IMG/VR virus record: IMGVR_UViG_3300005548_000002
Span: 1 to 45,393 of that record
DNA length: 45,393 nt
Reading direction: 5' to 3' (one strand)
Source of the DNA: a virus
Of this stretch, positions 4,936-34,671 are shown piece by piece. Within the stretch, counting starts at the first letter, position 1; every line of letters starts with the position of its first letter. The position numbers were made by a program, and so were the translations under genes. The notes below the pieces were generated by a model. It saw nothing but the letters and a program-made list of their open reading frames with translations. It was not told the DNA's origin and searched no databases.

Positions 4936-5001
4936 AGAAAGACGGAAGGAATGGAGGGCTGCCTACGGGTGGCCCTCCATCTTCCAACGGAAAGGAACCA
5001 A

Positions 5002-5466
5002 GTGGAGATCCGCCCTGCCTCATTGGCCCAGATCAGCAAGGGCCGCGACGGCCGCTATATCCAGATCGACGACGACGTACAAGGCGTCGCCAACGGCCTG
5101 AATACGATCGACCCGCACATCAAGCTCCGCTTCTCCGAGGCCGGGGGCTACTTCGTCGTCTACTGGTCGGAGAACCCGAACCGGACCGACGAGGAGGACG
5201 CCGACGACAACACGACGTACCTGATCTTCACCGCGCAGGAGTTGGACCACCGCATCGTCCACAAGATGCAGGAGGTCTACTGGAGGTGCAACAAGCCCGG
5301 CTACTCCTTCGCCGATGAGCTCGACGCCCGGGAGAAAGCCGACAAGAAGGCCGCCGAACACGACCGCCGCGAGAAGCAGGGCGAGATGTGGGAACGCCTC
5401 GCGCATGCGATGAGGAAGGACCTTGGCTACGACCAGGGCCGCATCTATGTCCCGGAGGGCGTATGA
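5002..5466 (+). CDS. Hypothetical head-module protein
   Basis: GTG 5002 has AAAGGA 5 nt upstream. The alternative ATG 4951 adds 17 residues that do not look like coding sequence. Confidence 0.5.
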   Translation: MEIRPASLAQISKGRDGRYIQIDDDVQGVANGLNTIDPHIKLRFSEAGGYFVVYWSENPNRTDEEDADDNTTYLIFTAQELDHRIVHKMQEVYWRCNKPGYSFADELDAREKADKKAAEHDRREKQGEMWERLAHAMRKDLGYDQGRIYVPEGV

Positions 5467-6128
5467 CCGACGTGCTGATAGCCGTCCCTTCCCGAGGCAA
5501 CGTCCGGGTCGAGTGGGCGTCCATGTTGATGACCCTGGAGATGCCGGTCAACCTGACCTATGCGATGAAGATCGTCACGGGGGAGACGGTCGAGGACGCA
5601 CGCAACACCCTCGTCAGGGAGGCCCGTGAGCTGGAGGCCAAGTACATCTTCTTCCTCGACGACGACGTCCTGGTCCCCAACCAGACGATCAGCCGCATGG
5701 TCTACGTCATGGAGAACGACGACTGCGACCTGTTGACGGCGATCGTACCGGTCAAGTCACCCGGTGGGGAACCATGCGTGTTCAGGAAGGGCCATGCCTC
5801 CTCCTACTGGGGCTGGACCTTCAACGAACGCTTCTCGGTCGACTCCTGCGGGATGGCCGCATGCATGATCCGCATGGACGCCTTCGAGAGGGTCCCGGAG
5901 CCCTGGTTCGAGTGGATCAAGGAGAGCAAGGGGCCGGGCCACACCTTCGAGGTCGGCGAGGACGTGGGCTTCTGCGAGCGGCTGAAGGACGCAGGAGGAA
6001 AGCTCCTGGCCGACGGTGGAATCCTCTGCGGCCACATCGACGAGAGCGGGAAGGTCTACACCCTCCCCGACGACTGCGGACCGCTCGAGCGAGGCAAGGA
6101 CAAGCTCGCGGAGTTCGTGAAGCTATGA
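5463..6128 (+). CDS. Glycosyltransferase (GT-A/GT2-like)
   Basis: ATGA overlap with the upstream gene. 'IAVPSRG' start and 'YIFFLDDDVLV' DxD motif. 221 aa. Confidence 0.6.
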   Translation: MTDVLIAVPSRGNVRVEWASMLMTLEMPVNLTYAMKIVTGETVEDARNTLVREARELEAKYIFFLDDDVLVPNQTISRMVYVMENDDCDLLTAIVPVKSPGGEPCVFRKGHASSYWGWTFNERFSVDSCGMAACMIRMDAFERVPEPWFEWIKESKGPGHTFEVGEDVGFCERLKDAGGKLLADGGILCGHIDESGKVYTLPDDCGPLERGKDKLAEFVKL

Positions 6129-6778
6129 CCATCGCCGGTTATACCTACCTCGAACTCCAGAACGAGGTCCTCGAACACCAGTTCAGCGACGGCAAGTACC
6201 GGCCCCTGGTCAAGAAATGGCTGAACCAGGCCCAGCGACGGGCGGTGATCGAATCGGAAAGCCGCACGCAGGAGGAATCCTCGTCGATCACGACGAGCGC
6301 CGGGGACGCGACCTACGAACTGCCGGCGAATTTCGCGCGGATGATCGACCTCTTCAACAGCGAAACGCACCAGCTTCCACAGCCGCTCGACATCCGTGAA
6401 TACGACAACCTCTCGAAATCTGAAGGGCAGCCCTACGCCTACGCCGTGATCGGCAATCAGATCACGTTCTACCCCACGCCGAATGCCGCCTACCCCTTCA
6501 CGCTCCGCTACTGGAGGCTCCCGGCCGACATGGTCGCCGAAACCGACCAGCCGGAAATCCCCGTCCAATACCACGAGCTGCTGATCGCCTACGCGATGAA
6601 GAAAGCCTTCCAGCGAGAGGACGATCTCCAGATGGCCCAGGCGTGGGAAGCGCAGTGGGAAAAAGGCATCCTGAAGATGCGCGGCGAGGTGCAGGCGGAC
6701 GTCTTCGACGGACCCCGCCAGGTGGCAGGAAGCTTCGCCGACGTCCACGGACCGGCTTTCGGCGTCTGGAGGGGTTAG
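6125..6778 (+). CDS. Putative head-tail adaptor / virion structural protein
   Basis: ATGA overlap with the upstream gene. 217 aa. Located between the capsid and tail genes. Confidence 0.4.
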   Translation: MTIAGYTYLELQNEVLEHQFSDGKYRPLVKKWLNQAQRRAVIESESRTQEESSSITTSAGDATYELPANFARMIDLFNSETHQLPQPLDIREYDNLSKSEGQPYAYAVIGNQITFYPTPNAAYPFTLRYWRLPADMVAETDQPEIPVQYHELLIAYAMKKAFQREDDLQMAQAWEAQWEKGILKMRGEVQADVFDGPRQVAGSFADVHGPAFGVWRG

Positions 6779-6781
6779 GCC

Positions 6782-8347
6782 GTGAGGGGATGGCCGATCA
6801 CCTATTCCGACTTCTCCGGCGGCCTCAACACCCAGAGCGGTCCTTACCTCCTCCAGGGAAACGAATGTCGGGAAGCCCTGAACGTCCATACCTCTCTGAC
6901 GGGTGATGTGGAGAAGCGGCCCGGGTTCATCACCCTCTCGGGCTCGACGCTCACCGGCTCCCCCGTGAACGCCACGGGGGTCCATACGCTGTTTCCGTCG
7001 AACACCTCGACCAAGAGCATTATCGGGGTCGCGACGACCTCGACCACGGACACGATCTTCAAGATGACCACGGGGGGAGTCGCATCGGTCCTGAAATCAG
7101 GGATGACCGCCAATACCCGCTGGTGGTTCGCCCAGGCCGAAGTCAACGGGGCGTCGGGGCCGATCTTCGGGCTGAACGGGGTGGACACGCCGAAGCGCTG
7201 GGACGGCTCGGCCGCGGAAATGTCGGACTGGGTCGCGACCACCGGAACGGTCCCGAAAGAAGCGAGGTACCTGACCTACTGGTCCTCCCGGCTCTGGTGC
7301 GCGAAGGGCTCCCGCCTCTACTACTCGGGAATCACCGGATCGACCCCGGACCCGTTGAACTGGGACGCCGAAAACTTCGTCGACCTCGAGCCCAACGACG
7401 GCCAGGAAATCACCGGGATAGGCATCGTCGGTGCCTATCTGATCGTCTTCAAGTCGCGCAAGATCTACAACGTCTACGACCCGAACACGGCAGCTAACCG
7501 GGCCATCTCCAACTCGGTCGGCTGCATCGCCCCGCGTTCGATCGTCCAGACGCCGATCGGCCTCCTCTTCCTCTCCGAGGATCAAGGCATCTGCAAGACG
7601 GACGGCACCGCGGTCACGCCGTTCTCGGACGGGATCAAGCCGGACATCGCCCGTGTCCTCGCGAACCCGACCACCGCCAGGAACGCGGCCGGGACGCTGC
7701 TCGACCGACGCTACATGCTCTCCGTGTCCGTCGGTGGGACGAGGAACGACCGCACCTACGAGTACGACATGATCGCGGGTTCCTGGTGGCCGCACAGTTG
7801 CGCGTCCAATGCCTTCGCCCTCCTCGATCCCCAGGGGACCCCGCAGCTCTACTCGGCCGATTCCCTGGCCTCGGCCCGCGTCTCCAAAGCCTTCGTCGCC
7901 GAAACCTTCTCGGAGAACGGGGCGAGCATGGCCTGGAAGTACGTCACCCCCTACTACGCCTGGGGTTCCTCTGGCTCCTTCCGCTACCAGCGCTACATCG
8001 ACCCGCACAAGGTCAAGCGCGTCAGAGAGGTGCGCGTCGATGGCGAGGGAACCTGGGAAGCCTTCATCGCCGCGGACTTCCGCGAGGAATGGAAGCTGAT
8101 GGACGGCGAGACGTGGAGCGCGTCGGGGGAAGCGGTCTCGGGCTTCTTCGAAACCGTCGAATCCCCCGAAACGACCTTCGAAGGCTCGGGCGCCGGGGTG
8201 TTCGAAGAAGGCGTGGAAATCGTCTCCGAGCGCCGCTACCACACGCCCGGCCTCGGGCGCTCCATCTCCTTCAAATATGAAGGCAACGACAGCAACCCCG
8301 TCAAAATATGGTCGACCACCATCTCAATCGACCAGAGACAAGACTGA
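6782..8347 (+). CDS. Virion structural protein with beta-propeller-like repeats (tail/nozzle candidate)
   Basis: GTG start, 521 aa. 'ITYSDFSGGLN' N-terminus and recurring strand-like blocks (LYYSG, IVFKSRKIYNVY, LLFLSEDQGICKTDG). Confidence 0.5.
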   Translation: MRGWPITYSDFSGGLNTQSGPYLLQGNECREALNVHTSLTGDVEKRPGFITLSGSTLTGSPVNATGVHTLFPSNTSTKSIIGVATTSTTDTIFKMTTGGVASVLKSGMTANTRWWFAQAEVNGASGPIFGLNGVDTPKRWDGSAAEMSDWVATTGTVPKEARYLTYWSSRLWCAKGSRLYYSGITGSTPDPLNWDAENFVDLEPNDGQEITGIGIVGAYLIVFKSRKIYNVYDPNTAANRAISNSVGCIAPRSIVQTPIGLLFLSEDQGICKTDGTAVTPFSDGIKPDIARVLANPTTARNAAGTLLDRRYMLSVSVGGTRNDRTYEYDMIAGSWWPHSCASNAFALLDPQGTPQLYSADSLASARVSKAFVAETFSENGASMAWKYVTPYYAWGSSGSFRYQRYIDPHKVKRVREVRVDGEGTWEAFIAADFREEWKLMDGETWSASGEAVSGFFETVESPETTFEGSGAGVFEEGVEIVSERRYHTPGLGRSISFKYEGNDSNPVKIWSTTISIDQRQD

Positions 8348-12766: not shown

Positions 12767-15700
12767 ATGGCAGGATCTCTCGGCAAAACGCGCGGGGCCA
12801 ATTCCTACGGCCCGAAGAAGAAGACGGTCGCGGAAAAGCTCGCTCCGGGCCCGGCTGCCACCAAGGCCGCCGCGACCACTCCTCCTCCGAGTCATAGCGG
12901 CGGGACCAGCGGCGATCTGACCATCCCCGGCTACACGCCGGAAACGCCGACCGGTGCCCCGTACAGCCCGACCGAACCGGGTCACAGCGCAGAAGACTTC
13001 GCCACCGCCTTCGCGGCGAAGGAACGGCACGAAGCGAAGGTGCGGAGAGCCGAAGAACGCCAACGCCGCATCGTCGACCGCTACGTCACCAGGGCCTATT
13101 CCCCCAAGCAGCCGAAGTCCCGAACCTTCTCGCTCGGGTCGACCTCCAACCGGGTCAAGAAGGCCAAAAGCAACGTCAGCGCGACGAGGGAAAAACTTCT
13201 CAGTCATCCGGCGGTCCAGAAGGCCAACGAAGAAGGCAAGGTGGTCGGAGCCAAGGGGCTCACCCAGATCCGCCGTGAGTCCAAGGCACTGGGCCCATCG
13301 GGGCCGCTGACGCACGCGAGGGCCGAACAACCCGGTGAAGCGAACAAGCTCGCGAAGAAATACCCCGGCCTCACGAAGCTCGAAGAAGCCAAGACGGTCA
13401 AACAGGAGGAAGGCGGTCTCGGCCCGGGAGACATCGGAGGCGCCATCTCCTCCGTGGCATCAGGGGCGAAGAACCTCTACGAAGGGATCAGGGAGCGCGA
13501 AAACCCGAATCCCGTCGCGAAGGCCGTGGGCCACGAAGTCGAGAACATCGCCGAACTGGCCAAGAAGCGCCTACCCGGGAACGCCGTCCCCGAATTGGCC
13601 CACGCGCCGACCACGCAGGAACTCGAAGTCGCCTCCAACCTCGCCATCCCTTCGACCGGGGGCGCCGCCGCGAGAGTGGCCGAGGAGGCCGGTCCGGCGC
13701 TCGCCGTCAAAGCCCTACGTGTCCTCGATGCCGCCAAAGCGGCCCCCGACGCGGCCCGTACGCTCCCGGATGTCCTGCGGAGCGCCCCTGCGGTCGCGCG
13801 GCAGGCGGTAAAAGAGGCGCCCGCAGCCGCCAGGCAGGCCGTCAAAGAGGCTCCTGCCGTGGCGAGGACCGCAGCGAGAGCGGCGCCGGGGGTTGCGGGG
13901 CGTCAGGCGGCGAAAGGAGCCGAGGGCGGCTTCTATTCGATCGGCGGTCTGGCGGCCCTGGGGGCACTCCACAAAGGCGGCCTGAACGTCCCCGGCGGCG
14001 CGATCCTCGAAGGACAGGCCAAGGCCATCGGTAAAGACCCGCTGAAAGTCCTCTCTTCGACCGCGAATCTCGCCCCCGGCTTCCTGACGGGTGCCTTCCA
14101 GCTACCCGTCGCCGCCGGCGCCTCGGTGATCCAGGGCAGTCCCGCCCCACTGGAAGGTGCGCTGAAGGAACAGGGCAACTTCTTCAAGCACTTCGCCGAA
14201 ACCTACGGGTCGAGCGACGCGTCCAAAATCGAAAAGGCCACCCTCGAAGAAGGCCTGCTGCCCGAGGTCCTGGCCGCCCCGCTCTTCGCCAAGGGTGTTC
14301 AGCATCTAGGCGGGGGTGCCCTGAAGGGCAAGGTCGCGGACGTGCTCGACTCTCGCCGTGCCCCCTTGACCGATGCGAGCGGGAACGTCCTCACCCATGA
14401 GCACGGAGGCCCCGTCAAGAAGGGCCGTCTGCGCACGGGGGAGGAAACCAAACTCACCCGCACCGCCGAACAGGCCAACCACCGCCGCGAAGAGGCCTTC
14501 CACGCCGCGACCACCAACGACCTGACCGAACTTGACTACGCGAAACGCCGGGCCGAAGTCGACAAGTACGCCCGCAAGGCAGCCGGGGAAAAGGTCCCGG
14601 TCCGCAAGGGTCTCGGCCCGAAGGGCAAGGACACGCTCTACGCCCGCTCGCCCGACTTCATCCCGTTCCTCGTGCGGGCAGGGATCGACCTGACGAAGCC
14701 CGAGGCCGCAGCGAAGGAGATCGCCCACTACGCCGAGCTCTACAAGGGCGCGAAGCTCCCCCACGAGCTGGGCGCCTCTCCCGAGACCCTGACGGCCCGC
14801 GACGCGATCGACTACTTCCAGGCCTTCCCGGCGAAGCTGAAGGACAAGAACCTCGCCAAGGCCGTCGAGGCATATCGGGCGATGGCCACCGGGGAGAAAG
14901 GCCTGCGAGCGCTCTCGACCTCGGAGCGCAACCGCTACCTCGCCTATGCCACCGCCCACGACCTCCCGCTGCCCGAGGAGCGCGTGCCTCTCGGCGCCCG
15001 AGGCCACACCGACGCCACCACCCGCGCAGGGGCGTGGGAGGACCTGAAAGGACGCGAGAAGGAAGTCAAGAAACTCCGCAAGGAGGCCGCGACGAAACGG
15101 GAGCAGGCGAAAGTGGCTGCCCCGTCACGGGCAGCGAAACTCCGTCGCGAAGCCAAGGACTCCTACGCCAAGGCCAAGACGATCGAGAAAGGCCGCCAGG
15201 AACTTCTCGACGAGTTGAAGCACTACACCCGTCCGTGGGCCAAGGCGAACCCGAACGCGAAGCGCATCCCCTACGACGCGGCACTGGAGAAAGAGTTCGC
15301 CGAAGAGGCACGCAAAGGGCTGACCGAACGGGGCCTGAACCCCGAGCCCGGCTACGTCCCCGACTCCACGGCGGTGATGAAGGCCGCACCGGATCAGTCC
15401 GCCACCGGAGGGAAGAAGCCCCTCGAAGGCGCGCCGAAGATCAACGAGGGCTACGTCTGGAAAAACGGCATCTCGCGTCAGGGCTACGAACACCTGATGA
15501 ACGAGGGCATCTTGCGGCCCGTCTCGCGCGCCTACCAGTGGGAGGACTGGCGTCGGTTCCGCAAAGAACGCGGCATCGCCTACGGGGGCGTCTACCAGCA
15601 CACCGGGGCAGAGTGGCAGAAAGCCTTCGACCAAGGGCTGCTGAACCCCAGAGACGTGGCCTTGGTCCCCAAACAGGTGGTCAACCGTCTGGAGAAGAAC

Positions 15701-18700
15701 GTCAAAGGCGGCGACCCGACCGAGTACGAGCAGGCCCTCGCCGAGGCGATGGCGGCACGCAAGGTGAGCCCCAAGGACGTGCAGTCGGGGACGGTCTATG
15801 AGGCCTACCCGAAGGCCGCCTACGACGAGAAGGTCGCCCAGTCCCAGAAATCCCCGATCTCGCCGATCCTTCGCAAGGCGAACTCCCTGACCTCCCGGAC
15901 GATGCTCTCGACCCCGTCCTTCGTCGGTGCGCAGCTCGTGGCGGAAACCGCGCAGGCCATAGCCGATGTGAACCCGGCCCGCATGATGCAAGGCCTCCGG
16001 GCCTACAGCCGTCTGACCCCCGAGCAAAAGCTTCGGATCAGCGGCGTCTCCGGGGAGACCGCCAAGGCGATCTTCTCCCCCGAAGACCTGAAGACGACTC
16101 TCGGCTCCTATGAGTCCAAGCCCTTCAAGGACTCGCTCAGCTTCTTCCGCCGCAACGTCTTCGCCCGCTCGGCGAAAGACATCGTGACGATGAAATGGGC
16201 CGGCGAGGTCAACCGGGCGACCGGCTCATTCACCCGCAGGGCGGTGCTGACCGGCCAGGTGATGCGGGATGTGAACGGTCTCTGGTCGAAAGGACGCAAG
16301 CTCCTAGGCGTGCAGACCGAGATCCAGAAGAAACTGGACGAGGCAACCAAGGGGTTGCACGGGAAGGCCCGCAAGGACGCCGCTCTCGCCTATCTGGCGG
16401 AAAACCCCGATGTCCTTACGCGCTACGGCAAGAGTCTGAACGACGCGATGGGTGGCTGGACGAACCTGACCCGGACGGGCCATGTCCCCGAGAGCTACCG
16501 GGCGGCGGTGCTGGTCTTCTACCCCTTTCTGCGGATGAGCCTCCAATGGCCGCTGAAGTACGCGATCAATCATCCGATCAAGGCCACTGCCCTCACCTAT
16601 CTCGCCGCCGAGAACAACTTCGCCCTGAAGGAAGCCCTCCACGGGGAACCGAGCTTCCTGAACTACGCCCAGATCCCCGTCTACGGAGTGGGACCGAAAG
16701 GCGAAGGGGTGATCATCAACCTCTCCCGCGTGGCCCCGGGAGGGAACGCCCTGACGGAAGCCGTCCAGGGATCGGGCTCTCCCCTTGGGGCATTGCAGCC
16801 TGTCCTTGCCGCTGGGATCACGGGAGCGACGGGGCAGGGTTCCTTCGGTGAAGTCGAAGGGGGGACCGGAGCACATCTGAAAGCCGGGCTGGCACAGATC
16901 CTCGGCCTCTCCCCCTACGTCAGGGCGGCCGACACGCTGCGTGGCGCGAAGGCATCGGGACAGAGCGAATTCGGCATCCTCGCGGGACGGGCCAACATCG
17001 CCGCCGAACCGCTTGCGGCGCTCGAGGCCAAACTGAAGGGCAGCCCCGGGAGCCAGCTCTCGCGCTCCCTGGTCAACCCTTTCCAGCCGATCCCGATCGA
17101 ACGGGCCAGGGACTCGGCGAAGCTCGGCCGCATCCTCCAGACGCTCTCGGCGAACAGCAAGGACAAGCAGAACAAGACCGAGGACAAAGCAACGGTCCTG
17201 AAGATGCGCGCCACCTCCGAAAAGGCCGAGAACGAACTGAACGCCCTCTACAAGAAATACGGCCTGACGAGTGTCGCCAAACTGGGCGAAGAACAGTACA
17301 ACTACTCGCATCCCTATCCCGGCGCAGGGGAAGGGATCTACGGGAAAAAATCCACGAGCGAATCGATCTACGGTCCTTCGTCGGGGGCGGGCTCTTCGAT
17401 CTACGGCGAAGAAAGCGCCCCGAAGATCCCCCACGAAACGAGCGGTGTCAGCCTGAGTCTCCCGGCGGTCCCGGGGCTCAGTTCCTTGACGGGGGCGATC
17501 GGGTCCCTCGTCGGCGGCGAAGCAGCGCAGGCCGCAGAACCGAAAGGGAAAAGACCCAAAGCGAAAGCGTCCACCCAGGCGCCGAGACCCGTACGCCTTC
17601 CTTTCCTGCCGACGGCCGAACAGCAGCGGAACGCCAAGACCGTCCTGAACATCGCGACGGCCCAGCACGCCTCGAAGAAGGAAAAGCTCGCAGCCATCGA
17701 GACGGGCCTCGTCGAGTCCTACGGCTTCAAAAACCTCCCGGTCGGCCAGAACACGACTGGCGAACCTTCGGGCGGCTGGCGTCAGGAACTCCAGACCTAC
17801 TATCCGAACCCTACGAACGTCAAGCAGGGTGCCCGCAACTTCTTCGAAGAGACCAAAACCGACCCGACGATCCCGGGCGGCGGAGGGGAAACGTCAGGCG
17901 AACTCGCGCAGACCGTCCAAGGTTCGGCCTACCCGGAACGCTACGCCGAACACAAGGCCGAAGCAGCCAAGATCCTCAAGGCCTACGAAACCGGCAAAGG
18001 CATAACCGCCGATCTCAGCAAAGGGAAAGGCAACAAGGTCTACGTCCGGGCCGACGCCAAGGGGATGGTCCAGTGGGCGAAGAACGCCGAAGGGACGCAG
18101 GAGGGCAGCTCCAAACAGTTGAGGTGGGCGGCCAACGAGGGCCTAGGTTCATCTCAGCCCTGGTGCGCGAACTTTGTTTCCAACGGCCTCACCCGACGCG
18201 GCGTACCACTGCCCCCCAATCCGAACTACGTTCCCTCCTACGAATCAGAATGGACCGGCGGGAAGAACATCGGGACGAACCTGGCCAAGGCCAAGCCCGG
18301 TGACCTCGTCGCCTTCTCCGGGGAACACATCGGCCTCTACATCGGCAACGGGGAAATGATCTCGGGCAATTACGGCAATCAGGTCGCCCGATCCTCCGTC
18401 GCCGAAGAGGGAAATGCGCTCACCGCGATCCTGCGCCCGAAGTACAAGGGCGGCAAGGTCGCAGTCGCGGCCGGTAGCCCGCTGCCGGGGAGTGCCTTCT
18501 CGGTTGGTGGTGAAGGTGGGGTTCCCGTCCCTGCCGCCATCGCAGTCTCGACCGGCAGTAACACGACCTCCCCCGTCGAACGCGGCAAGCAGAAGACCCA
18601 GAAGACCACGCGCGAACAGTCGCCGCTCAAACGACTCTCGGAAGTCGAACGCATCTTCGCCGGGCAGACGCCCAAGGCGGGAGTCATCCCCGGTTTCGAA

Positions 18701-18787
18701 AGGACCGCACAGCCCCCCACGATGCCCGACTTGGCCGCGATCGGCGAAGCGGTCGAAAAGTCACGCCGGAAACTTCTCGCGGCATAA
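12767..18787 (+). CDS. Giant internal virion/ejection protein with C-terminal CHAP/NlpC-P60-type peptidase domain
   Basis: 2006 aa. 'QPWCANFVS' (Cys codon 18164..18166) and 'GEHIGLYIG' (His codon about 18326). An upstream 'VQGSAYPERY' block at about 17915..17945. Confidence 0.65.
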   Translation: MAGSLGKTRGANSYGPKKKTVAEKLAPGPAATKAAATTPPPSHSGGTSGDLTIPGYTPETPTGAPYSPTEPGHSAEDFATAFAAKERHEAKVRRAEERQRRIVDRYVTRAYSPKQPKSRTFSLGSTSNRVKKAKSNVSATREKLLSHPAVQKANEEGKVVGAKGLTQIRRESKALGPSGPLTHARAEQPGEANKLAKKYPGLTKLEEAKTVKQEEGGLGPGDIGGAISSVASGAKNLYEGIRERENPNPVAKAVGHEVENIAELAKKRLPGNAVPELAHAPTTQELEVASNLAIPSTGGAAARVAEEAGPALAVKALRVLDAAKAAPDAARTLPDVLRSAPAVARQAVKEAPAAARQAVKEAPAVARTAARAAPGVAGRQAAKGAEGGFYSIGGLAALGALHKGGLNVPGGAILEGQAKAIGKDPLKVLSSTANLAPGFLTGAFQLPVAAGASVIQGSPAPLEGALKEQGNFFKHFAETYGSSDASKIEKATLEEGLLPEVLAAPLFAKGVQHLGGGALKGKVADVLDSRRAPLTDASGNVLTHEHGGPVKKGRLRTGEETKLTRTAEQANHRREEAFHAATTNDLTELDYAKRRAEVDKYARKAAGEKVPVRKGLGPKGKDTLYARSPDFIPFLVRAGIDLTKPEAAAKEIAHYAELYKGAKLPHELGASPETLTARDAIDYFQAFPAKLKDKNLAKAVEAYRAMATGEKGLRALSTSERNRYLAYATAHDLPLPEERVPLGARGHTDATTRAGAWEDLKGREKEVKKLRKEAATKREQAKVAAPSRAAKLRREAKDSYAKAKTIEKGRQELLDELKHYTRPWAKANPNAKRIPYDAALEKEFAEEARKGLTERGLNPEPGYVPDSTAVMKAAPDQSATGGKKPLEGAPKINEGYVWKNGISRQGYEHLMNEGILRPVSRAYQWEDWRRFRKERGIAYGGVYQHTGAEWQKAFDQGLLNPRDVALVPKQVVNRLEKNVKGGDPTEYEQALAEAMAARKVSPKDVQSGTVYEAYPKAAYDEKVAQSQKSPISPILRKANSLTSRTMLSTPSFVGAQLVAETAQAIADVNPARMMQGLRAYSRLTPEQKLRISGVSGETAKAIFSPEDLKTTLGSYESKPFKDSLSFFRRNVFARSAKDIVTMKWAGEVNRATGSFTRRAVLTGQVMRDVNGLWSKGRKLLGVQTEIQKKLDEATKGLHGKARKDAALAYLAENPDVLTRYGKSLNDAMGGWTNLTRTGHVPESYRAAVLVFYPFLRMSLQWPLKYAINHPIKATALTYLAAENNFALKEALHGEPSFLNYAQIPVYGVGPKGEGVIINLSRVAPGGNALTEAVQGSGSPLGALQPVLAAGITGATGQGSFGEVEGGTGAHLKAGLAQILGLSPYVRAADTLRGAKASGQSEFGILAGRANIAAEPLAALEAKLKGSPGSQLSRSLVNPFQPIPIERARDSAKLGRILQTLSANSKDKQNKTEDKATVLKMRATSEKAENELNALYKKYGLTSVAKLGEEQYNYSHPYPGAGEGIYGKKSTSESIYGPSSGAGSSIYGEESAPKIPHETSGVSLSLPAVPGLSSLTGAIGSLVGGEAAQAAEPKGKRPKAKASTQAPRPVRLPFLPTAEQQRNAKTVLNIATAQHASKKEKLAAIETGLVESYGFKNLPVGQNTTGEPSGGWRQELQTYYPNPTNVKQGARNFFEETKTDPTIPGGGGETSGELAQTVQGSAYPERYAEHKAEAAKILKAYETGKGITADLSKGKGNKVYVRADAKGMVQWAKNAEGTQEGSSKQLRWAANEGLGSSQPWCANFVSNGLTRRGVPLPPNPNYVPSYESEWTGGKNIGTNLAKAKPGDLVAFSGEHIGLYIGNGEMISGNYGNQVARSSVAEEGNALTAILRPKYKGGKVAVAAGSPLPGSAFSVGGEGGVPVPAAIAVSTGSNTTSPVERGKQKTQKTTREQSPLKRLSEVERIFAGQTPKAGVIPGFERTAQPPTMPDLAAIGEAVEKSRRKLLAA

Positions 18788-23076: not shown

Positions 23077-23225
23077 TCGTCCTCGTCGCGGTCCTCGCTG
23101 TCGGCTGCATCCTCGTCGGGATGGGCATCGAGGCATGGCTCGGCGGTGCTCATACCGGGTCGCTCGAACACGAAGTCTGGATGTTGGAACTGGAGATCCA
23201 GCGCTTGAAGCGGGGCAAGCTGTGA
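23073..23225 (+). CDS. 50-aa membrane peptide
   Basis: ATGA overlap with the upstream gene. TM segment 'MIVLVAVLAVGCILVGMGI'. Confidence 0.35.
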   Translation: MIVLVAVLAVGCILVGMGIEAWLGGAHTGSLEHEVWMLELEIQRLKRGKL

Positions 23226-23692
23226 TCGCCGCCCCCACCGTCGACCGCTTCATGTCCAAGGTCGTCTGGAACGGCGACGAGGACGAATGCTGGACGTGGG
23301 AGGGCGGCACCGGCTCACACGGCTACGGGCAGATCAGCCTCGGCCGGAAGCAGCGCTTGGCCCACCGCGTCTCTTACGAATTGTTCAAAGGGGAAATCCC
23401 CCACGGCTTGGTCGTCGACCACCTTTGCCGCACCCCACGCTGCGTGAACCCTTCTCATCTGGAAGCGGTGACGCAAGGAGAGAACTGCTTGCGGGGCGTC
23501 GGCGCCTGCGCATCTAACGCTCGCAAGACCCACTGCGTTCGCGGCCATGAGTTCACCCCTGAGACGACCTACATCGTCCCTGCGACTGGTCACCGCACTT
23601 GCACCGTCTGCCGTGATGCCCGGAAGGCACGTTGGGACGCCATGCGTAAGTCCGAAATCGAAAACGCCCGACTGAAACGAGAGGGGAAATGA
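23222..23692 (+). CDS. HNH homing-type endonuclease (HNH_3-like), paralogue of 8359..8808
   Basis: 'RFMSKV...CWTWEGG....GYGQIS....RLAHRVSYE' and 'DHLCR.P.CVNP.HLE.VT..EN'. GTG start overlaps the upstream TGA. Confidence 0.8.
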   Translation: MIAAPTVDRFMSKVVWNGDEDECWTWEGGTGSHGYGQISLGRKQRLAHRVSYELFKGEIPHGLVVDHLCRTPRCVNPSHLEAVTQGENCLRGVGACASNARKTHCVRGHEFTPETTYIVPATGHRTCTVCRDARKARWDAMRKSEIENARLKREGK

Positions 23693-24029: not shown

Positions 24030-24889
24030 GCGAGACCTACACCGTCCGTGACGTACGCGAGGGGAAGGTGAAGCCCAACCCTCACGGCGGCGGCAACCTC
24101 CAGGCCTTCTACGTGGACTTCGTACGCCCTGACGGCAAACTGGAAATGGGCGTCTACTGGCAGCGCAAGGAGGGCAACGCCCCGCAGCCGGAGGAATCTG
24201 TCTTCGGAGACATCACCGAAGGTGACTACGGCCCTCGCTTCAAGCAGGCGAAAGGTGGTCCTTCACACAACGAATCTTCCACGGGCAATGCTCCGGGGTC
24301 GTCCAGCGGCAGGACTCCGGGTTCTGGACCCGGCAACGGTGGTTCGAATCCATCCCCCGGAACTAACGGGACGGACTGGGAGGTCAGGAACGCCGAAATC
24401 CGCAGGCAGCACTCGCAGGAGATGAGTGTTCGGGTCCATGGCTACGTCGGTGCCTTCTCCGCTGAGCTAAATCAGGCGGGGATCTCGGACCTCACGAAAT
24501 CGAGTATCGCCGTTCTCGCCGACTGGTTCGACCAGGACGCCATAGCCGCCGGCCAGAAGGCGAGTCAGGGCGCAGCATCGACGAGTGGCTCACCACACTC
24601 GTCGCCTCCTCCCCAGGGTGCTGCCCCTGACTCGTTTTCAGCCGGGGAAGAACACCAATGGCTGGAAAACCTCCTGATCCAGGGAGGGGCATCAACCTAC
24701 GGCGCAGGGAAGCTCGCCAACTTCGCATTGGAGGAGTTGAGCCCGGAGAACCTCAAGAAATGCGAGGCCCTCCTGAGCAACCTGGACTCCCAGGTCGAAG
24801 GCCGTGAACGGCTCGAAACGAGCTACACGAAGGCCAAGGGTGAACCGGTCCCGCAGGTCGACCCCATCGACGACGACCTTCTGTTCTGA
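24026..24889 (+). CDS. SSB-like protein candidate (N-terminal domain, Gly/Ser/Pro linker, acidic C-terminal tip)
   Basis: 287 aa. The C-terminus 'DPIDDDLLF' resembles the SSB 'DDDIPF' tip, and the middle is low-complexity. Confidence 0.35.
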   Translation: MSETYTVRDVREGKVKPNPHGGGNLQAFYVDFVRPDGKLEMGVYWQRKEGNAPQPEESVFGDITEGDYGPRFKQAKGGPSHNESSTGNAPGSSSGRTPGSGPGNGGSNPSPGTNGTDWEVRNAEIRRQHSQEMSVRVHGYVGAFSAELNQAGISDLTKSSIAVLADWFDQDAIAAGQKASQGAASTSGSPHSSPPPQGAAPDSFSAGEEHQWLENLLIQGGASTYGAGKLANFALEELSPENLKKCEALLSNLDSQVEGRERLETSYTKAKGEPVPQVDPIDDDLLF

Positions 24890-25948: not shown

Positions 25949-26310
25949 CGCAGCGCGACCGCATCCTCCGCGCGCTCGAGCTCGCCGGCCCCAAAGGGGT
26001 TCGCTCAGACGCCTTCATCAAAGACTTCATGCCCCGAGCAGCAGCCCGCGTACAGGAGTTGAAAGACGAGGGCTACGACATCACGTCGGAGCGTGAGGGA
26101 AAGTTTTGCCGCTGGACTCTTAACGTCGGAAGCAGCACCGAAGGTCGGGACCAGGCTGAACCGGGCGGCACCTATCAGCCAGTCGATGCGACCTCCGGTG
26201 TTGCTTCGGGCGTTGAAGCCCTGGTGCCTTCCTCGTCTCCCCAGTCTCCCGGGGAAAGCACCACGGGCTCCGCCCGGTCTTCGATGTACGAGACGTGGGT
26301 GGAGGACTGA
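25945..26310 (+). CDS. Winged-helix DNA-binding protein candidate
   Basis: 'RDRILRALELAGPKGVRSDAF...ARVQELKDEGYDI'. Confidence 0.45.
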   Translation: MTQRDRILRALELAGPKGVRSDAFIKDFMPRAAARVQELKDEGYDITSEREGKFCRWTLNVGSSTEGRDQAEPGGTYQPVDATSGVASGVEALVPSSSPQSPGESTTGSARSSMYETWVED

Positions 26311-26891
26311 TGGCAGTCTCCAAACGGCTCCGCTACGAGGTTATGCGCCGGGACGGTTTCCGCTGCCGCTACTGCGGGTTCTCGGCCAGTGAGACCGAAC
26401 TTCAGGTCGATCACGTCCAGCCGATCGCCCTAGGCGGCGGCGATGAGCCGGAGAACTTGGTCACGTCCTGCGCTGATTGCAACGCCGGGAAGTCGGCGAG
26501 CAGTCCCGACCAGGCGATTGTCGAGAGCGTAGCTGACGATTCGTTGCGTTGGGCCAAGGCACTAGAGGAAGCCGCGGCGATCAAAGCGGCTGAGCGAGCG
26601 AAACAAACCCGGTACACCAAGGCCATCGATAAAGCATGGTCGGCGTGGACAAACGGCGCCGACGAACCGCTTCCGCGTCCGCGAGACTGGAAGCAGTCGC
26701 TTGAACAATTCCGTAACTCCGGCCTAGACCAGAAGACTGCCCTTCACATGGTCGATGTGACCATGAACCGACAGGGCCTCCTCAATAACAAGGCTTGGAA
26801 GTACTTCTGCGGTTGCTGCTGGAACGTGATCCGCGAGCAGCAGGCAATCGCTGCGGCATTGATCGAGCGCGACGAGGCAGGGCAGGAGTGA
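26310..26891 (+). CDS. HNH endonuclease (classic HNH/HNHc)
   Basis: 'RDGFRCRYCG......LQVDHVQP.ALGG...PENLVTSCADCNAGK'. Confidence 0.8.
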   Translation: MAVSKRLRYEVMRRDGFRCRYCGFSASETELQVDHVQPIALGGGDEPENLVTSCADCNAGKSASSPDQAIVESVADDSLRWAKALEEAAAIKAAERAKQTRYTKAIDKAWSAWTNGADEPLPRPRDWKQSLEQFRNSGLDQKTALHMVDVTMNRQGLLNNKAWKYFCGCCWNVIREQQAIAAALIERDEAGQE

Positions 26892-29022: not shown

Positions 29023-29219
29023 GCACGGTCACGCAACTGGAGCCTTGGGTCCCCCTCACCGAGCTCGCGAACCACTGCGATTGCTCAGTCCGCTTCCTCA
29101 AGTACCGGGTTGCCGAAGGGATGCCCTCGGCCATCGTCTGCGGCAAGCGGAAGGTTCAACTGCGGGCGGCAATAGATTGGCTCGAAAAGGAGGGCCACAT
29201 CGTGAGGAGTGCTGCCTGA
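29019..29219 (+). CDS. xis: Excisionase / MerR-like HTH protein
   Basis: 'VPLTELANHCDCSVRFLKYRVAEGMP....GKRKV.L..AIDWL'. Directly upstream of int and overlapping it. Confidence 0.55.
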   Translation: MSTVTQLEPWVPLTELANHCDCSVRFLKYRVAEGMPSAIVCGKRKVQLRAAIDWLEKEGHIVRSAA

Positions 29220-30250
29220 TGGCGATTCGCAAAGTCAAGACCAAGAAGCTCGGCATCCGCTACGGGGTCCGGGTGCATGTCGGCGACGGCAAATACGAGA
29301 TGCTCGGGACCTTCCCGTCGAAGGCCGCCGCCAAGGAGGTCGAAGCGAAGTGGATGTTGCGGACGCGAGGGCGCCAGCGGCGGACGGGGAAAGACTGGGC
29401 CGATTTCTACCTGGAGGGCTACGAGGAACGAGTCAAGCGCTCGAGCTACCTCACCGCCTGCACCGCGATCAACTGCTGGCTGAAGACGTTCGGCAGTCGA
29501 ACCCTCGCCAGCATCGAACCGACTGAGGCGGAGACCTGGGCGCGAGCAAATCGCTGGGCGGTGCCGCCCGTCGTGACGATGCTGAACAACGCAGTCAAGA
29601 AAGACGCTCTCGACCGCAACCCTTTCGTCGGCCTGTCAAGTCGCAGCCAGGGTCGAAGGTTCAACGAGCCGTTAAGCGTGGCCGACCTTGAGCGCCTGGC
29701 CGCCGCCGCCGAGAAACATCACGGGTCCATGTTCAAGGCTTTCGTCCTCTTCACGGCGTACACGGGCATGAGGGTGGGGGAGGTCTTCGCGCTCAAGTGG
29801 GAAGACATCGATTTCACCGAGGGGAAGATCCTCGTCCGTCGCCGTCTCTATCGCTCTGAACTGGATCTGCCGAAGGGAAACAAGACGCGGGAGATCGCTC
29901 TGTTCCCTGAGGCCAGGGACGCCATCGCCGCGCTCGACCGCGAGACGGCATGGGTCTTCCTGGCCAAGCGGGGTGGCCAACTGGCGCAATCGACGCTGAA
30001 TCACTACTGGCAGAAGATCGTCGCGACGTTCGGTCGGGAGATCGATCCCCACGAGCTACGGCACTTCTGCGGCCATCATCTCTACGTCACCAAGGGGGTC
30101 CCCGAGCGCATCGTCGCCGCCCAGCTAGGCCACAACGACGGCGGCAAGTTGGTGCGGGAGCTCTACGGTCACGGAGACCACGGCGCGATCGATGAACTGA
30201 AGCGTCTCTACGGCGAGAACGTGGTCCCCTTCGAGAGGAAAGCCTCGTGA
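29219..30250 (+). CDS. int: Tyrosine integrase
   Basis: 343 aa. 'YTGMRVGE' (Arg), 'HELRHFCGH', 'LGHNDG', 'LYGHG' (Tyr). The N-terminal arm-binding-like 'GIRYGVRV' block is present. Confidence 0.85.
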   Translation: MAIRKVKTKKLGIRYGVRVHVGDGKYEMLGTFPSKAAAKEVEAKWMLRTRGRQRRTGKDWADFYLEGYEERVKRSSYLTACTAINCWLKTFGSRTLASIEPTEAETWARANRWAVPPVVTMLNNAVKKDALDRNPFVGLSSRSQGRRFNEPLSVADLERLAAAAEKHHGSMFKAFVLFTAYTGMRVGEVFALKWEDIDFTEGKILVRRRLYRSELDLPKGNKTREIALFPEARDAIAALDRETAWVFLAKRGGQLAQSTLNHYWQKIVATFGREIDPHELRHFCGHHLYVTKGVPERIVAAQLGHNDGGKLVRELYGHGDHGAIDELKRLYGENVVPFERKAS

Positions 30251-30449: not shown

Positions 30450-30857
30450 ATGAAGGCCTCGGTCTATCTCGCCTACAAAGGCGACAAGCTGCTCTACGTC
30501 GGGATCACCGGCACGGGGACCAAGCGCCTGTCTCAGCATCGGCGGAACAGCGAGTGGTGGCTCAAGGCCGATCGCATCGAACTCGAGCACTACCCGACGC
30601 GCTCGCGGGCGATGGCGCGAGAGGCCGACCTGATCGAAGAGAGGAAGCCACGCTTCAACAAGAAGCCTGGCCATCGACGCTGTCGCGAGGATCTCATGTC
30701 GCTCGACGAGCTCTACGCCGGAATGTCTGTCTGGCCTAAGGAGCGCCTTCTCAAATGGGCTGAAAAGGGAAAGCTGCCGGTCGCCGACTGGATCGAAGGC
30801 GCGCCCCTCTTCGACGAAGAAGAGATTCTCAGTTGGGTCAGAGGTGAGGCCTCGTGA
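30450..30857 (+). CDS. GIY-YIG nuclease with C-terminal HTH-like region
   Basis: 'VYLAYKGDKLLYVGIT....KRLSQH' and 'E..LI...KPRFN'. Confidence 0.7.
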   Translation: MKASVYLAYKGDKLLYVGITGTGTKRLSQHRRNSEWWLKADRIELEHYPTRSRAMAREADLIEERKPRFNKKPGHRRCREDLMSLDELYAGMSVWPKERLLKWAEKGKLPVADWIEGAPLFDEEEILSWVRGEAS

Positions 30858-32594: not shown

Positions 32595-32866
32595 TGAGCA
32601 AGGTCGTGTTCCGTGACCGAAGCGGGCGGCGGCTGGAGCGAGGTGCCCGGGTCAAGAACGTTCGGATGCCTATGTTCTCCGGCACCTACAGCGTCGTGGC
32701 GCTCACCGAGTTCGACGGTCGCGCAAGCGTGGGCCTCTATCACGGACCGTTCGAGGAATACCAGCCGAACTTCTGCATCCCGTTCGTCCCCGCCGAACCG
32801 TCCGGTGACGGCTTCACCGCGCGCGACCTGGAACTCGTCGAAGAGAAAGCAGAGGCAACCTCATGA
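32591..32866 (+). CDS. Hypothetical protein
   Basis: GTGATG start. 91 aa. Confidence 0.45.
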   Translation: MMSKVVFRDRSGRRLERGARVKNVRMPMFSGTYSVVALTEFDGRASVGLYHGPFEEYQPNFCIPFVPAEPSGDGFTARDLELVEEKAEATS

Positions 32867-33144
32867 GCCCTGAACAGCAGTCAGGTAGCGAGAGGGTGGA
32901 GTACGCGTCTTGCAGTTGCGGCACGCCGAATTGCCCGGAGCTTGGCTGGCCCCACGAATGGGACCCGATCGCAGCGGGGGATAGCTGCTCCGCCTCGGTT
33001 CCTCCAGCGATCTTCACCTGCTCCATCGAGCAACTGAAGGCCGGCTGGCAACCGCCCGTCCACAAGGTGACGGAGCCTTACGTCCGCTGGGGATCGGGTT
33101 ACGGCTGCGTCGAGTGCGTCGAAGCGGAGTCCGGCGATGACTGA
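32863..33144 (+). CDS. Hypothetical Cys-rich protein
   Basis: ATGA overlap with the upstream gene. Its 3' end overlaps the tnpB start by 8 nt. Confidence 0.45.
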   Translation: MSPEQQSGSERVEYASCSCGTPNCPELGWPHEWDPIAAGDSCSASVPPAIFTCSIEQLKAGWQPPVHKVTEPYVRWGSGYGCVECVEAESGDD

Positions 33145-34336
33145 GCACACCGAGAGCAAGGTGAATCGGATTTACCGCTACAGGCTCTACCCGTCGCGCC
33201 GACAGGCGGCGGCGCTCGAGGCCCAACTCGCCTGGGCCTGCGATCTCTACAACGCGGCGCTCGAGCAGCGCCGCACCGCGTTCCGCGATTTCGGCGTCTC
33301 GGTGCGACTCAAGGATCAGCAGCACGAGCTGACCGCCCTGCGAGGTGACGGCCCGCAAATGAACTACGTCTGCCAGGAGATGGTCCTCCAGCGGTTGAAC
33401 CTCGCCTTCGAAGCGTTTTTCCGGCGCACGAGGAACGGCGAGAGGCCGGGCTTCCCTCGATTCAGAGCAAAATCCCGGTTCAACACGCTCGCCTGGCGCA
33501 GGCGCCAGGGCGGGGCAGCGATCGTCAACGACCGCCTGCGCATCCAAGGCGTCGGCCACCTCAAGGTCAAATGGCATCGCGACCTCCCGAGTGACCCCAA
33601 GCAGACGCGAATCACTCGCAAGAACGGCCGCTGGTACGCCGCGTTCACCGTGGAGGTCGAGCGTCAGCCGCTCACCCCTACGGGTCGTGAAATCGGCGTC
33701 GACCTGGGCGTCCGGCAGTTCGCCACGCTCTCCGATGGTTCACATGTCGTCGGTCCGCGTCCTGGCCGAGTAGCGGCCCCCGCGATCCGGCGGGCCCAGC
33801 GTAAGGTCGCCCGTCGCCACAGAGGTAGTCACCGCCGCCGCAGGGCCGTCGCTGAACTTGCACGCCGTCGCGAGCGGGAGGCGAACCGCCGGCTCGATGC
33901 CGCCCATAAGGCTGCGAAGGGCTTGGTTAATGACTTCGACCTGATCGCCGTCGAGGATCTCCGCCCCGCCAACATGGTCCGGGGCAACCGCGGTCTCGCC
34001 CGCGAAATCAGCGACCAGGGCTGGTCCACCTTCTTGCAGTGCCTCGAAGACAAGGCTGAAAGCGCCGGTCGCCGAGTAGTCCGCGTCAACCCCCGGAACA
34101 CGTCACGTTGCTGCTTCGAATGCGGTGCCGTCGATCGTGACTCCCGCAAGGGGCCGCGCTTCGTCTGCACGACGTGCGGCCACACGGATGACGCTGACGT
34201 AAACGCCGCCAAGAACATCTTGGCCTTGGCCCGGACGGGGCCGTCAGGCGCCAACGCGAATCTAGTTCTCGCGTTGCCTGAGAAGCCGCAGCAGCGGAGT
34301 CGTCACTTCGGCTCAGGAGCAAAGGGGATCGCATGA
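33137..34336 (+). CDS. tnpB: TnpB (IS200/IS605-family OrfB, RuvC-type RNA-guided nuclease)
   Basis: 'RIYRYRLYPS' N-terminus. 'GVDLG' (Asp), 'IAVEDL' (Glu), CxxC...CxxC zinc ribbon, 'DADVNAAKNI' (Asp). 399 aa. No adjacent tnpA. Confidence 0.85.
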   Translation: MTEHTESKVNRIYRYRLYPSRRQAAALEAQLAWACDLYNAALEQRRTAFRDFGVSVRLKDQQHELTALRGDGPQMNYVCQEMVLQRLNLAFEAFFRRTRNGERPGFPRFRAKSRFNTLAWRRRQGGAAIVNDRLRIQGVGHLKVKWHRDLPSDPKQTRITRKNGRWYAAFTVEVERQPLTPTGREIGVDLGVRQFATLSDGSHVVGPRPGRVAAPAIRRAQRKVARRHRGSHRRRRAVAELARRREREANRRLDAAHKAAKGLVNDFDLIAVEDLRPANMVRGNRGLAREISDQGWSTFLQCLEDKAESAGRRVVRVNPRNTSRCCFECGAVDRDSRKGPRFVCTTCGHTDDADVNAAKNILALARTGPSGANANLVLALPEKPQQRSRHFGSGAKGIA

Positions 34337-34340
34337 AGAC
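34200..34340 (+). ncRNA. Candidate omega RNA (reRNA) scaffold overlapping the tnpB 3' end
   Basis: Two abutting hairpins at 34252..34276 (perfect 8-bp stem) and 34277..34317 (6+3 bp). A/T-ending codons are locally enriched. The position matches where omega RNAs lie in characterised TnpB elements. The ends are not defined. Confidence 0.35.
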
Positions 34341-34671
34341 CCGCATCTGGTCAGACGAGGCCCTGGCCAAGAGAGCCGAAGGCTGCCGAGTCTGCGGGAG
34401 GACCGACCGCGTCGAGCTTGCCCACGTCACGGGCCGTATCCACGATCGTCCCCGCACTCCGGGCTCCAAGACGGTCTACGTCGAGCCTGAGTCCGTGGTG
34501 CCCCTCTGCGGCCCTGCGGTGGACCCTGGGACCTGTCACCACGCCCACGACTCGCATCGGCTGGATCTGTTGCCGTACCTCCATCTCGAGGAGCAGATTC
34601 GCGCCGTCGAAGACGCCGGCTCCATAGGCCTAGCCCTCCAGCGGATCAGTCCCGAGAAGGCAGCCGCATGA
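34333..34671 (+). CDS. His-Me finger (HNH-like) protein candidate
   Basis: 'CRVCG......ELAHV.GR', 'VVPLCGP' and 'CHHAHD'. ATGA overlap with tnpB. Confidence 0.45.
   Translation: MKTRIWSDEALAKRAEGCRVCGRTDRVELAHVTGRIHDRPRTPGSKTVYVEPESVVPLCGPAVDPGTCHHAHDSHRLDLLPYLHLEEQIRAVEDAGSIGLALQRISPEKAAA

Follow-up and report, generated by a model that had tools for sequence, protein, structure and literature searches.

How does a gene for an RNA-guided nuclease come to lie between two genes of a phage operon, and what might it do there? The question is raised by IMG/VR virus record IMGVR_UViG_3300005548_000002, the 45,393 nucleotides of which are referred to here as the window, and in which a stand-alone tnpB gene at positions 33137–34336 is joined to both neighbours by overlapping start and stop codons. 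A first-pass annotation, made from the sequence alone, had drawn attention to the gene and proposed that it could serve as a homing device, a weapon or a hitch-hiker. Our overall reading is that the locus holds a phage-embedded, ISDra2-like TnpB with its own RNA scaffold, and that its RNA-guided activity would target the empty allele of the site in which it resides. Taken as a whole, we lean slightly towards this reading. The anatomical part is held with considerable confidence, and a role in homing or competition, judged by analogy with known systems, is plausible rather than probable.

The protein is identified by the following features.

33137–34336, plus strand: tnpB open reading frame (ORF), ATG start, 399 aa (from the ORF list, profile matches and structure model)
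33701–33703, plus strand: codon GAC of RuvC-I Asp189, aligned with ISDra2 D191; invariant in 34 clade proteins
33953–33955, plus strand: codon GAG of RuvC-II Glu273, aligned with ISDra2 E278; invariant in 34 clade proteins
34196–34198, plus strand: codon GAC of RuvC-III Asp354, aligned with ISDra2 D361; invariant in 34 clade proteins
34112–34177, plus strand: zinc ribbon C326/C329...C344/C347; the four cysteines are invariant in the clade

All motifs quoted by the first-pass annotation (NRIYRYRLYPS, IGVDLGV, LIAVEDL, CFEC...CTTC and DADVNAAKNI) are present in the 399-aa translation, and profile searches, including those with OrfB_IS605 and HTH_OrfB_IS605 that it had suggested, gave matches above the curated cut-offs. 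In Pfam, Cas12f1-like_TNB (E-value 1.5e-21; 76.7 bits, cut-off 26.3; residues 296–361), OrfB_IS605 (1.5e-20; 74.0 bits, cut-off 30.5) and HTH_OrfB_IS605 (1.3e-4; 21.8 bits, cut-off 21) each scored over the gathering threshold. The NCBIfam model guided_TnpB (NF040570) reached 257.5 bits against a cut-off of 100, and PHROG 506, annotated as 'transposase', matched at 1.8e-87. The best natural match among solved structures is the TnpB of ISDra2 (8bf8/8h1j; E ~2e-48 over residues 10–365, ~30% identity), and counting along this alignment places D189, E273 and D354 in register with D191, E278 and D361 of ISDra2. An AlphaFold2 model built on the alignment of relatives has a mean predicted local distance difference test score (pLDDT) of 83, with values below 50 for residues 370–399. 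In a Foldseek search its best matches in the PDB are 8h1j (E 3e-25, template modelling (TM) scores 0.74/0.81) and 8exa, both ternary complexes of ISDra2 TnpB; the structural comparison proposed earlier is in agreement with the assignment. The catalytic triad and the four zinc-ribbon cysteines are unchanged in 34/34 relatives of 60–80% identity, and the earlier claim of an intact nuclease triad, unlike that of TldR proteins, is borne out. Judged from its sequence, the ORF encodes a TnpB with an intact RuvC triad, apparently a functional RNA-guided nuclease. By analogy with the starts of sister genes, RTGA(A/G)..., a GTG at 33161 is a possible alternative native start. The protein in itself is ordinary, and TnpB genes are common in phages (homologues in 465 INPHARED phage records).

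The element does not end with its nuclease domain. The features at its right side are listed below.

34157–34306 (~150 nt; 5′ limit approximate), plus strand: right end and predicted omega-RNA scaffold, inside the 3′ end of the tnpB ORF
34228–34242, plus strand: stem A of the scaffold
34245–34280, plus strand: stem B of the scaffold
34280–34287, plus strand: GAGAAGCC box of the scaffold
34286–34297, plus strand: terminal hairpin of the scaffold
34302–34306, plus strand: terminus GTCAC, the limit of the right end
34307–34322 (possibly to 34326), plus strand: predicted 16-nt guide TTCGGCTCAGGAGCAA, the first bases past the right-end terminus

We aligned the DNA of the window with that of seven relatives whose proteins are 64–80% identical (L004, L005, L007, L188, L189, L190 and L191). 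Conservation extends beyond RuvC-III through GGCCCGGACGGGGCC, a second stem, GAGAAGCC and a small hairpin to (A/G)GTCAC, past which the eight loci become unalignable, so that the boundary is abrupt. In the comparison with IS200/IS605 elements the terminus of the window reads GAGAAGCC-CCG/CGG hairpin-AGTCGTCAC, ending at 34306. The succession of GAGAAGCC, hairpin and GTCAC recurs in the wider family, in the Deinococcus elements L011/L015, which have tnpA upstream, and in L018/L023; the flanks of L018/L023 (a two-copy pair from one metagenome-assembled genome) and of other wider-family elements split exactly after GTCAC. The stems at 34228–34242 and 34245–34280 are supported by covariation: across 23 distinct sequences, 96% of cells pair, compared with 69% in column shuffles and 27–49% with slid partners, there are compensatory double changes in 61 cells, and pairing as high as that observed did not arise in any of 500 shuffles. 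Rfam contains no model for this scaffold RNA, and no Rfam family matches in or around tnpB. From these sequences we conclude that a conserved right end with an omega-RNA scaffold is present, as coding DNA, in the 3′ end of tnpB. Since the right end stops at 34306, the guide should begin at 34307; that 34307–34322 is used as a guide is inferred from ISDra2-type systems. With up to 3 mismatches allowed, the guide TTCGGCTCAGGAGCAA occurs once in the window, and no second match was found there or in any fetched locus.

No comparable structure delimits the element on the left. Upstream of the tnpB start, the only feature conserved among eight aligned loci is a purine-rich ribosome-binding site, and neither a conserved sequence nor a left-end hairpin was found there; most loci share an RTGA start that doubles as the stop of the upstream gene. 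Between –45 and +100 nt around the first conserved codons, RNAalifold returned no shared hairpin (–3 kcal/mol, no covariation), and a left-end hairpin hidden in the 5′ coding region was rejected on that ground. A 9-nt sequence, AGCGGAGTC, common to the left flank and the right end of the window, was likewise discarded as a left-end relic, with 8–9-nt matches present in 9/56 cross-locus controls. The canonical relatives L018/L023, by comparison, share a left end of ~190 nt with a hairpin that resembles their right-end hairpin. The first-pass annotation had stated that no non-coding ends are left, which is correct for the left end and incorrect for the right end, where a conserved scaffold reaches 34306 within coding sequence. 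Of the three boundaries that it had hoped to define by aligning related genomes, the right end could be placed, a conserved left end was absent, and no consistent transposon-associated motif (TAM) emerged.

A transposase is missing as well. A tblastn search with the Y1 domain found no Y1 transposase in the window, consistent with the initial description, and the called genes of the window contain no Y1 Pfam domain. In the fetched flanks of seven sister loci tested, none (7/7) showed a TnpA within ~5 kb of tnpB by tblastn. A more distant relative, P0075 (known as a protein of 489 aa; identity 52%), has a Y1 fragment (HVHLF, PF01797) either fused to it or lying ahead of it in frame, which indicates that more distant relatives of the clade are still linked to TnpA.

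These observations bear on the simplest alternative, in which tnpB is an ordinary hitch-hiking insertion sequence (IS) of the IS1341 type, mobilized in trans by an IS605 TnpA of the host and neutral or slightly harmful to the phage, with a guide that serves merely for classical restorative homing after excision. The lack of a conserved sequence or hairpin 5′ of the start in eight loci, where canonical relatives have a left end of 150–190 nt, and the absence of a nearby TnpA in the seven sister loci tested and in the window both speak against it. On the other hand, the right end is canonical for the wider family, including the TnpA-linked L011/L015 and P0075 with its Y1 fragment. The abundance of TnpB in phage records, and the identity of some phage copies to host IS copies, for instance in cyanophage A-1(L) (bioRxiv 10.64898/2026.02.14.705889), also favour a hitch-hiker.

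The way in which tnpB is connected to its neighbours can be understood from the gene into which it seems to have been inserted.

32863–33144, plus strand: upstream 93-aa Cys-rich phage gene, with the insertion in its 3′ end
34322–34336, plus strand: probable remnant 3′ end and stop of the interrupted 93-aa-family gene, AAGGGGATCGCATGA (..KGIA*)
34333–34671, plus strand: downstream 112-aa gene, outside the element, with its start coupled to the stop used by tnpB
...GTCGAAGCGGAG... to TTCGGCTCAGGAGCAAAGGGG: window flanks expected to be joined in the uninterrupted allele (minus 33120–34306)

The overlaps themselves are as first described: the ATG at 33137 sits 8 nt within ORF 32863..33144, as ATGACTGA, and the TGA of tnpB (34334–34336) shares an ATGA with the start at 34333 of ORF 34333..34671. 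The 93-aa ORF belongs to a family of small, Cys-rich proteins (CSCG...ELGWPHEWDPIAAGD...GSGYAC.EC) with ~40 metagenome homologues and no annotated domain. Its homology to L004 (85% aa) and L194 (79% aa) ceases near 33117–33121. The L194 homologue ends with ...CAG GGG ATC GCG TGA (..QGIA*) and the window tnpB with ...AAG GGG ATC GCA TGA (..KGIA*), each overlapping the start of the next gene, and AAGGGGATCGCATGA and the L194 gene end CAGGGGATCGCGTGA are alike at 13/15 nt (the homologue being 79% identical). The cassette appears, from these comparisons, to lie within the last few codons of the 93-aa gene, and the last codons and stop of tnpB, together with the ATGA coupling, are probably the original end of that gene, although some of the 13/15 agreement could reflect functional convergence, since both gene ends have to provide a ribosome-binding site and an overlapping start.

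In the relatives L207 (70%) and L108 (52%), tnpB stops at the TGA of CCTGAGAAGCC. The same TGA in the window (34279–34281) is out of frame with tnpB, so that the ORF runs on through scaffold and guide, and this read-through gives TnpB its disordered C-terminal tail. Lacking an in-frame stop of its own, tnpB runs into what appears to be the end of the interrupted gene, which explains the ATGA overlap. The overlaps had been put forward as an argument against an insertion; the stop and overlap instead appear to derive from the interrupted gene, as a consequence of insertion. Read-through of the right end was rejected as a defining trait of the clade, as it holds in 8/9 loci and L207 keeps the canonical stop. 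In L207 (3169–3200), the called start of the downstream gene falls inside the right end, 31 nt before the terminus; either the true start lies further downstream than called, or coding sequence enters the right end from both sides. The 112-aa ORF downstream of tnpB in the window has a CxxC...H...C..CHHxH pattern and no match in Pfam, PHROG or NCBIfam. Homologues of it are found directly upstream of the L004 tnpB (4450–5004), ~1.1 kb downstream of the L007 tnpB (7264–7899), and without an adjacent tnpB in L195 and L196.

Relatives of the gene occur in eight phage-like contexts (the window, L004, L005/6, L007/L090, L188, L189, L190 and L207), where the TnpB proteins are 69–80% identical to that of the window. 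In 8/8 of these, tnpB is co-oriented in an operon of small phage-type genes with its start overlapping the upstream stop, a pattern that counts against the hitch-hiking IS. L004 lies in a 549-kb contig and is probably a prophage. The sole cellular-looking context is that of L191 (64% identical), with intergenic gaps, and it supports the hitch-hiker, as does the presence of every clade member at its own site with different neighbours. Further clade members, P0004–P0040, lie on short contigs.

The window contains one copy of tnpB, and close copies are scarce elsewhere. Among the matches listed, the closest protein anywhere is 80% identical to the window TnpB, the best relative in a pattern scan of 185,579 GTDB species-representative genomes is 48% identical, and relatives in the scans of JGI metagenomes and GTDB are of 52% identity or less. 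The lack of copies closer than 48% among those listed from the species genomes is a further point against an IS shared with hosts. IMG/VR yielded one close relative only, from the same phage as L007, and a megablast search of INPHARED revealed no near-identical phages with or without tnpB. L007 (ena:ERZ27251944 k141_2306118, 86.6 kb) is a second phage-like contig, with tnpB at 5001–6164 and a 76% identical TnpB, and shares both its metagenome sample and its Logan run with the window, so that related tnpB carriers co-occur. In the parts fetched, the window guide had no match in L007 and the L007 guide none in the window. Over the TnpB core, pairwise ratios of non-synonymous to synonymous divergence (dN/dS) are 0.12–0.28, and dS exceeds 1 for all pairs. 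The tnpB copies are, by this measure, old and under purifying selection, and the earlier statement that this is not a fresh IS insertion holds, in that the insertion is not recent (dS >1 to every relative).

The occupied and empty states of such sites can be compared directly in two relatives, L189 and L004. Each predicted 16-nt guide was searched against all fetched DNA, and the L189 guide, TCGACGCATCAGAGGA, matches L004 at 16/16 positions, where we estimate that ~0.007 exact matches would be expected by chance in the sequence searched. The match falls in the L004 orthologue of the gene interrupted by the L189 tnpB. The upstream protein of L189 ends with ...RLQALLD-EGSS*, the L004 orthologue reads ...RLRLLLDASEDTEKQ..., and the tail of the L189 tnpB, ...SLDASEELTTPGGEH*, continues the interrupted gene in frame (LLD|ASEE...). 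Reciprocally, L189 holds an uninterrupted version of the site occupied in L004, ...GGCACCC AGTGCGTACG TGGAGAGCTT, of which the left flank in L004 is ...GGCACCC AGTGCTTACG|CCGTTGAGG and the right flank GTCAC|AGTGCCTACG TGGAGCTT. The reciprocal empty/occupied sites are at the following positions.

L004: 4226–4250, 4956–5000/6154–6175
L189: 4970–4990/6160–6175, 6918–6960

The reciprocal empty and occupied alleles show that these are true insertions into genes of related phages, and the sequences suggest that a guide carried by one phage can be directed at the empty allele in a second. This narrows the list of functions offered by the first-pass annotation (homing, weapon or hitch-hiker), since the sister locus L189 displays the geometry expected for homing. 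A tnpB tail that is always in frame with the interrupted gene was considered and dropped, being true for the window and L189 and false for L004.

In both cases the first bases of the target are present on either side of the insert, 6 nt in L189 (6/6) and 10 nt in L004 (9/10), and the left edge of the insert differs from case to case whereas the right edge is exact. IS200/IS605 elements make no target duplication, and the repeats and the ragged left edge are, as far as these sequences go, not canonical for that family. The short repeats in both cases with an empty site count further against the hitch-hiking IS, which on balance we consider unlikely, together with the merely restorative role that it assigns to the guide. 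Target repeats are reported for these two loci with empty sites only. As a general rule for nine loci, a flanking direct repeat or a diverged left copy of the target was not over the cross-locus background (permutation p 0.25–0.62); the window itself has one 5/6 repeat candidate, TCCGGC/TTCGGC, with no empty allele for comparison.

The same junctions are relevant to a different explanation, namely that tnpB is an immobile relic, captured once by illegitimate recombination and shuffled among mosaic phages without a guide-dependent role, and that its sharp boundaries reflect selection on gene borders. Such a relic would be compatible with the heterogeneous left junction, with the age of the copies (dS >1), and with the high mosaicism of these phages, the neighbours being different in every locus. 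However, the inserts of L189 and L004 each interrupt a gene that is intact in the other phage, and are insertions rather than module swaps. In addition, the right boundary is base-exact in all loci, and triad, zinc ribbon and RNA stems are all maintained, with compensatory changes that keep the stems. We regard an immobile relic as improbable, and the explanation of the boundaries by selection on gene borders as no better.

For the phage-embedded, RNA-guided TnpB that we favour, we propose the following sequence of events. TnpB would be translated from the operon mRNA through coupling to the upstream gene, and would cut its own transcript into an omega-RNA with the guide at 34307–34322. The complex would cleave a TAM-adjacent target, namely the 93-aa gene in its uninterrupted form, as carried by related phages or prophages that share the cell. 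The occupied allele would be spared, because there the guide sequence is preceded by the scaffold end GTCAC, which is not a TAM. Once cut, the rival would either be destroyed or undergo repair with the tnpB-bearing genome as template, with the cassette copied in, which would amount to homing without TnpA. The steps are modelled on ISDra2-type systems (PMC8612924, PMC10278001, PMC10055086). Homing by TnpB (PMC10055086) and production of omega-RNA by TnpB processing of its own mRNA (PMC10278001) have been described, TnpA-independent spread has been shown for IS605 in plasmids (PMC11870625), and phage homing by TnpB has been named solely as a theoretical case (PMC13565253).

The nuclease could also have been domesticated by the phage and aimed elsewhere, whether at a locus of the host, at a defence island or at a competing, unrelated element, much as prophage TldR proteins were recruited to act on host genes. 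Long-term purifying selection within phage genomes would be expected in that case, tnpA and the left end have been lost as in TldR loci (PMC10705468), and the gene is predicted to be expressed as part of an early operon. However, the guide is nothing other than the adjacent flank of the interrupted gene and changes from phage to phage, which is of the transposon type and not reprogrammed, the nuclease residues are intact, unlike those of TldR, and no second guide match exists in the window or the fetched loci (host DNA lay outside the search). We assign little probability to domestication for another target.

A bolder version of the favoured reading extends it to the entire clade, which would then be a self-mobilizing RNA-guided homing cassette of phages, made of TnpB and omega-RNA, in which neither TnpA nor a left end is needed any longer. 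The cassette would pass from one related phage to the next through cleavage directed by the guide, with subsequent repair by recombination or end joining. This would account for the exact right junction, the ragged left one, the short target duplications, and survival only where the translational coupling of the operon was preserved. We consider it doubtful as it stands.

Several observations weigh against RNA-guided targeting of the empty allele. An uninterrupted allele of the window's site was not found, the closest homologues of the flanking genes being 72–85% identical and having other neighbours. Neither IS605 transposition nor clean homologous repair would be expected to produce the 6- and 10-nt repeats or the heterogeneous left junctions. 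Every clade member occupies a different site, with dS >1 for all pairs, which is more like rare transposition-like moves than frequent homing to one site. Finally, the target copy is preceded by CTAC, ACCC and possibly GGAG, which reveal no consistent TAM; CTAC against ACCC leaves no TAM to be read. A candidate TAM, YTAC, occurs 16–17 nt before the start in three loci and is absent in the window, L188, L190, L191 and L207; one empty site has CTAC. Several positions reported to contact the TAM in ISDra2 (e.g. K76) differ in the window TnpB, and its TAM is probably not TTGAT.

The genome in which the gene resides is a metagenome contig of ERZ27251944, and is also present in SRR5451461. Its genes include those for a terminase and a tyrosine integrase, several of the HNH and GIY-YIG types and one for tRNA-Gln, from which we conclude that it belongs to a temperate tailed phage. 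The phage is temperate and actinobacterial, with a host probably in the Solirubrobacterales, as extrapolated from the source names on homologues. Among the other genes of the window are the following.

29219–30250: tyrosine integrase, ~2.9 kb upstream of tnpB (initially given as ~3 kb)
30450–30857: GIY-YIG gene, free-standing
23222–23692: HNH_3 gene, free-standing
26310–26891: HNH/HNH_5 gene, free-standing

The genes between ~30 and 40.5 kb overlap head to tail on the same strand, and this region contains no sigma-70-like promoter match and no terminator-like site on the plus strand, consistent with one long same-strand early operon. Besides tnpB, the phage genome is rich in homing-endonuclease-like genes, with the three free-standing ones listed above (GIY-YIG, HNH_3 and HNH/HNH_5). 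The tRNA-Gln (anticodon CTG, 24292–24363) is the sole RNA gene in the window by Rfam and ARAGORN, and a single 2006-aa ORF at 12767–18787 in the structural region presumably encodes the tape-measure protein. Two reverse-strand ORFs, 33014–33577 (187 aa) and 33829–34254 (141 aa), overlap tnpB and were taken as high-GC artefacts; an expressed antisense ORF in a cyanophage tnpB has been described in a recent preprint.

TnpB is the ancestor of Cas12, and to our knowledge what it does in nature has been established only where it belongs to TnpA-linked transposons of bacterial chromosomes and plasmids. If our reading is true, a nuclease-intact lineage without TnpA and left end, kept over long periods in phage operons, would be a natural intermediate between a transposon accessory gene and an autonomous RNA-guided nuclease for homing or competition. 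It would show how a gene can reside in an operon at low cost, by borrowing the stop and the coupling of the gene that it interrupts, and in practical terms it would provide a compact TnpB with a clearly delimited predicted scaffold and guide. If the gene is instead an ordinary IS mobilized in trans, the finding is routine.

Measured against known systems, the window protein belongs to the TnpB family on everything that could be compared from sequence and model (profiles, triad and zinc ribbon, fold and scaffold). The element departs from the IS200/IS605 transposon class in its lack of a left end and of TnpA and, in the sister loci, in the rule that no target is duplicated, and the literature searched contains no account of the way of life of this lineage in phages. 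With ISDra2 TnpB and its omega-RNA (right-end element RNA, reRNA) of the IS200/IS605 family (8h1j, 8exa, 8bf8) the window shares domain order, fold and the D-E-D triad, and a scaffold that coincides in part with the 3′ end of the gene and terminates at the right end, although the RNA of the window is predicted from sequence. The terminal motif GAGAAGCC-hairpin-GTCAC is common to the window and the Deinococcus relatives. In contrast to ISDra2, the window TnpB is only ~30% identical, has no tnpA and no left end, lies in a phage operon, and is encoded by an ORF that does not stop at the TGA of CCTGAGAAGCC and reads past right end and guide into the flank.

Elements of the IS1341 type, which are tnpB-only (PHROG 506; mycobacteriophages, Thermus phages, cyanophage A-1(L)), resemble the window in having a stand-alone tnpB in a phage. 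However, the canonical L018/L023 has a left end of ~190 nt with a hairpin, whereas the window has none; such elements are usually found, as in A-1(L), in several near-identical copies that the host has as well, whereas the window has no close copy among the matches listed; and the window tnpB is translationally coupled on both sides. TldR (PMC10705468) is similar as a resident gene of TnpB lineage in temperate phages, without tnpA or a recognizable left end. Yet in TldR both the RuvC triad and the right end are gone, and the guide is aimed at a host promoter, while the window gene keeps triad, zinc ribbon and right end, and with its nuclease residues intact the window protein is not a TldR. 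The closest parallels in way of life are the free-standing homing endonucleases of phages (T4 Seg/Mob type) and the drive by plasmid IS605 TnpB (PMC11870625; PMC13565253), with which the window shares a nuclease gene wedged in a conserved phage gene region, with the potential to cut an allele that lacks the gene and then to be copied in or to exclude a rival. The difference from homing endonucleases is that recognition in the window system would reside in an RNA guide and a TAM, rather than in the protein.

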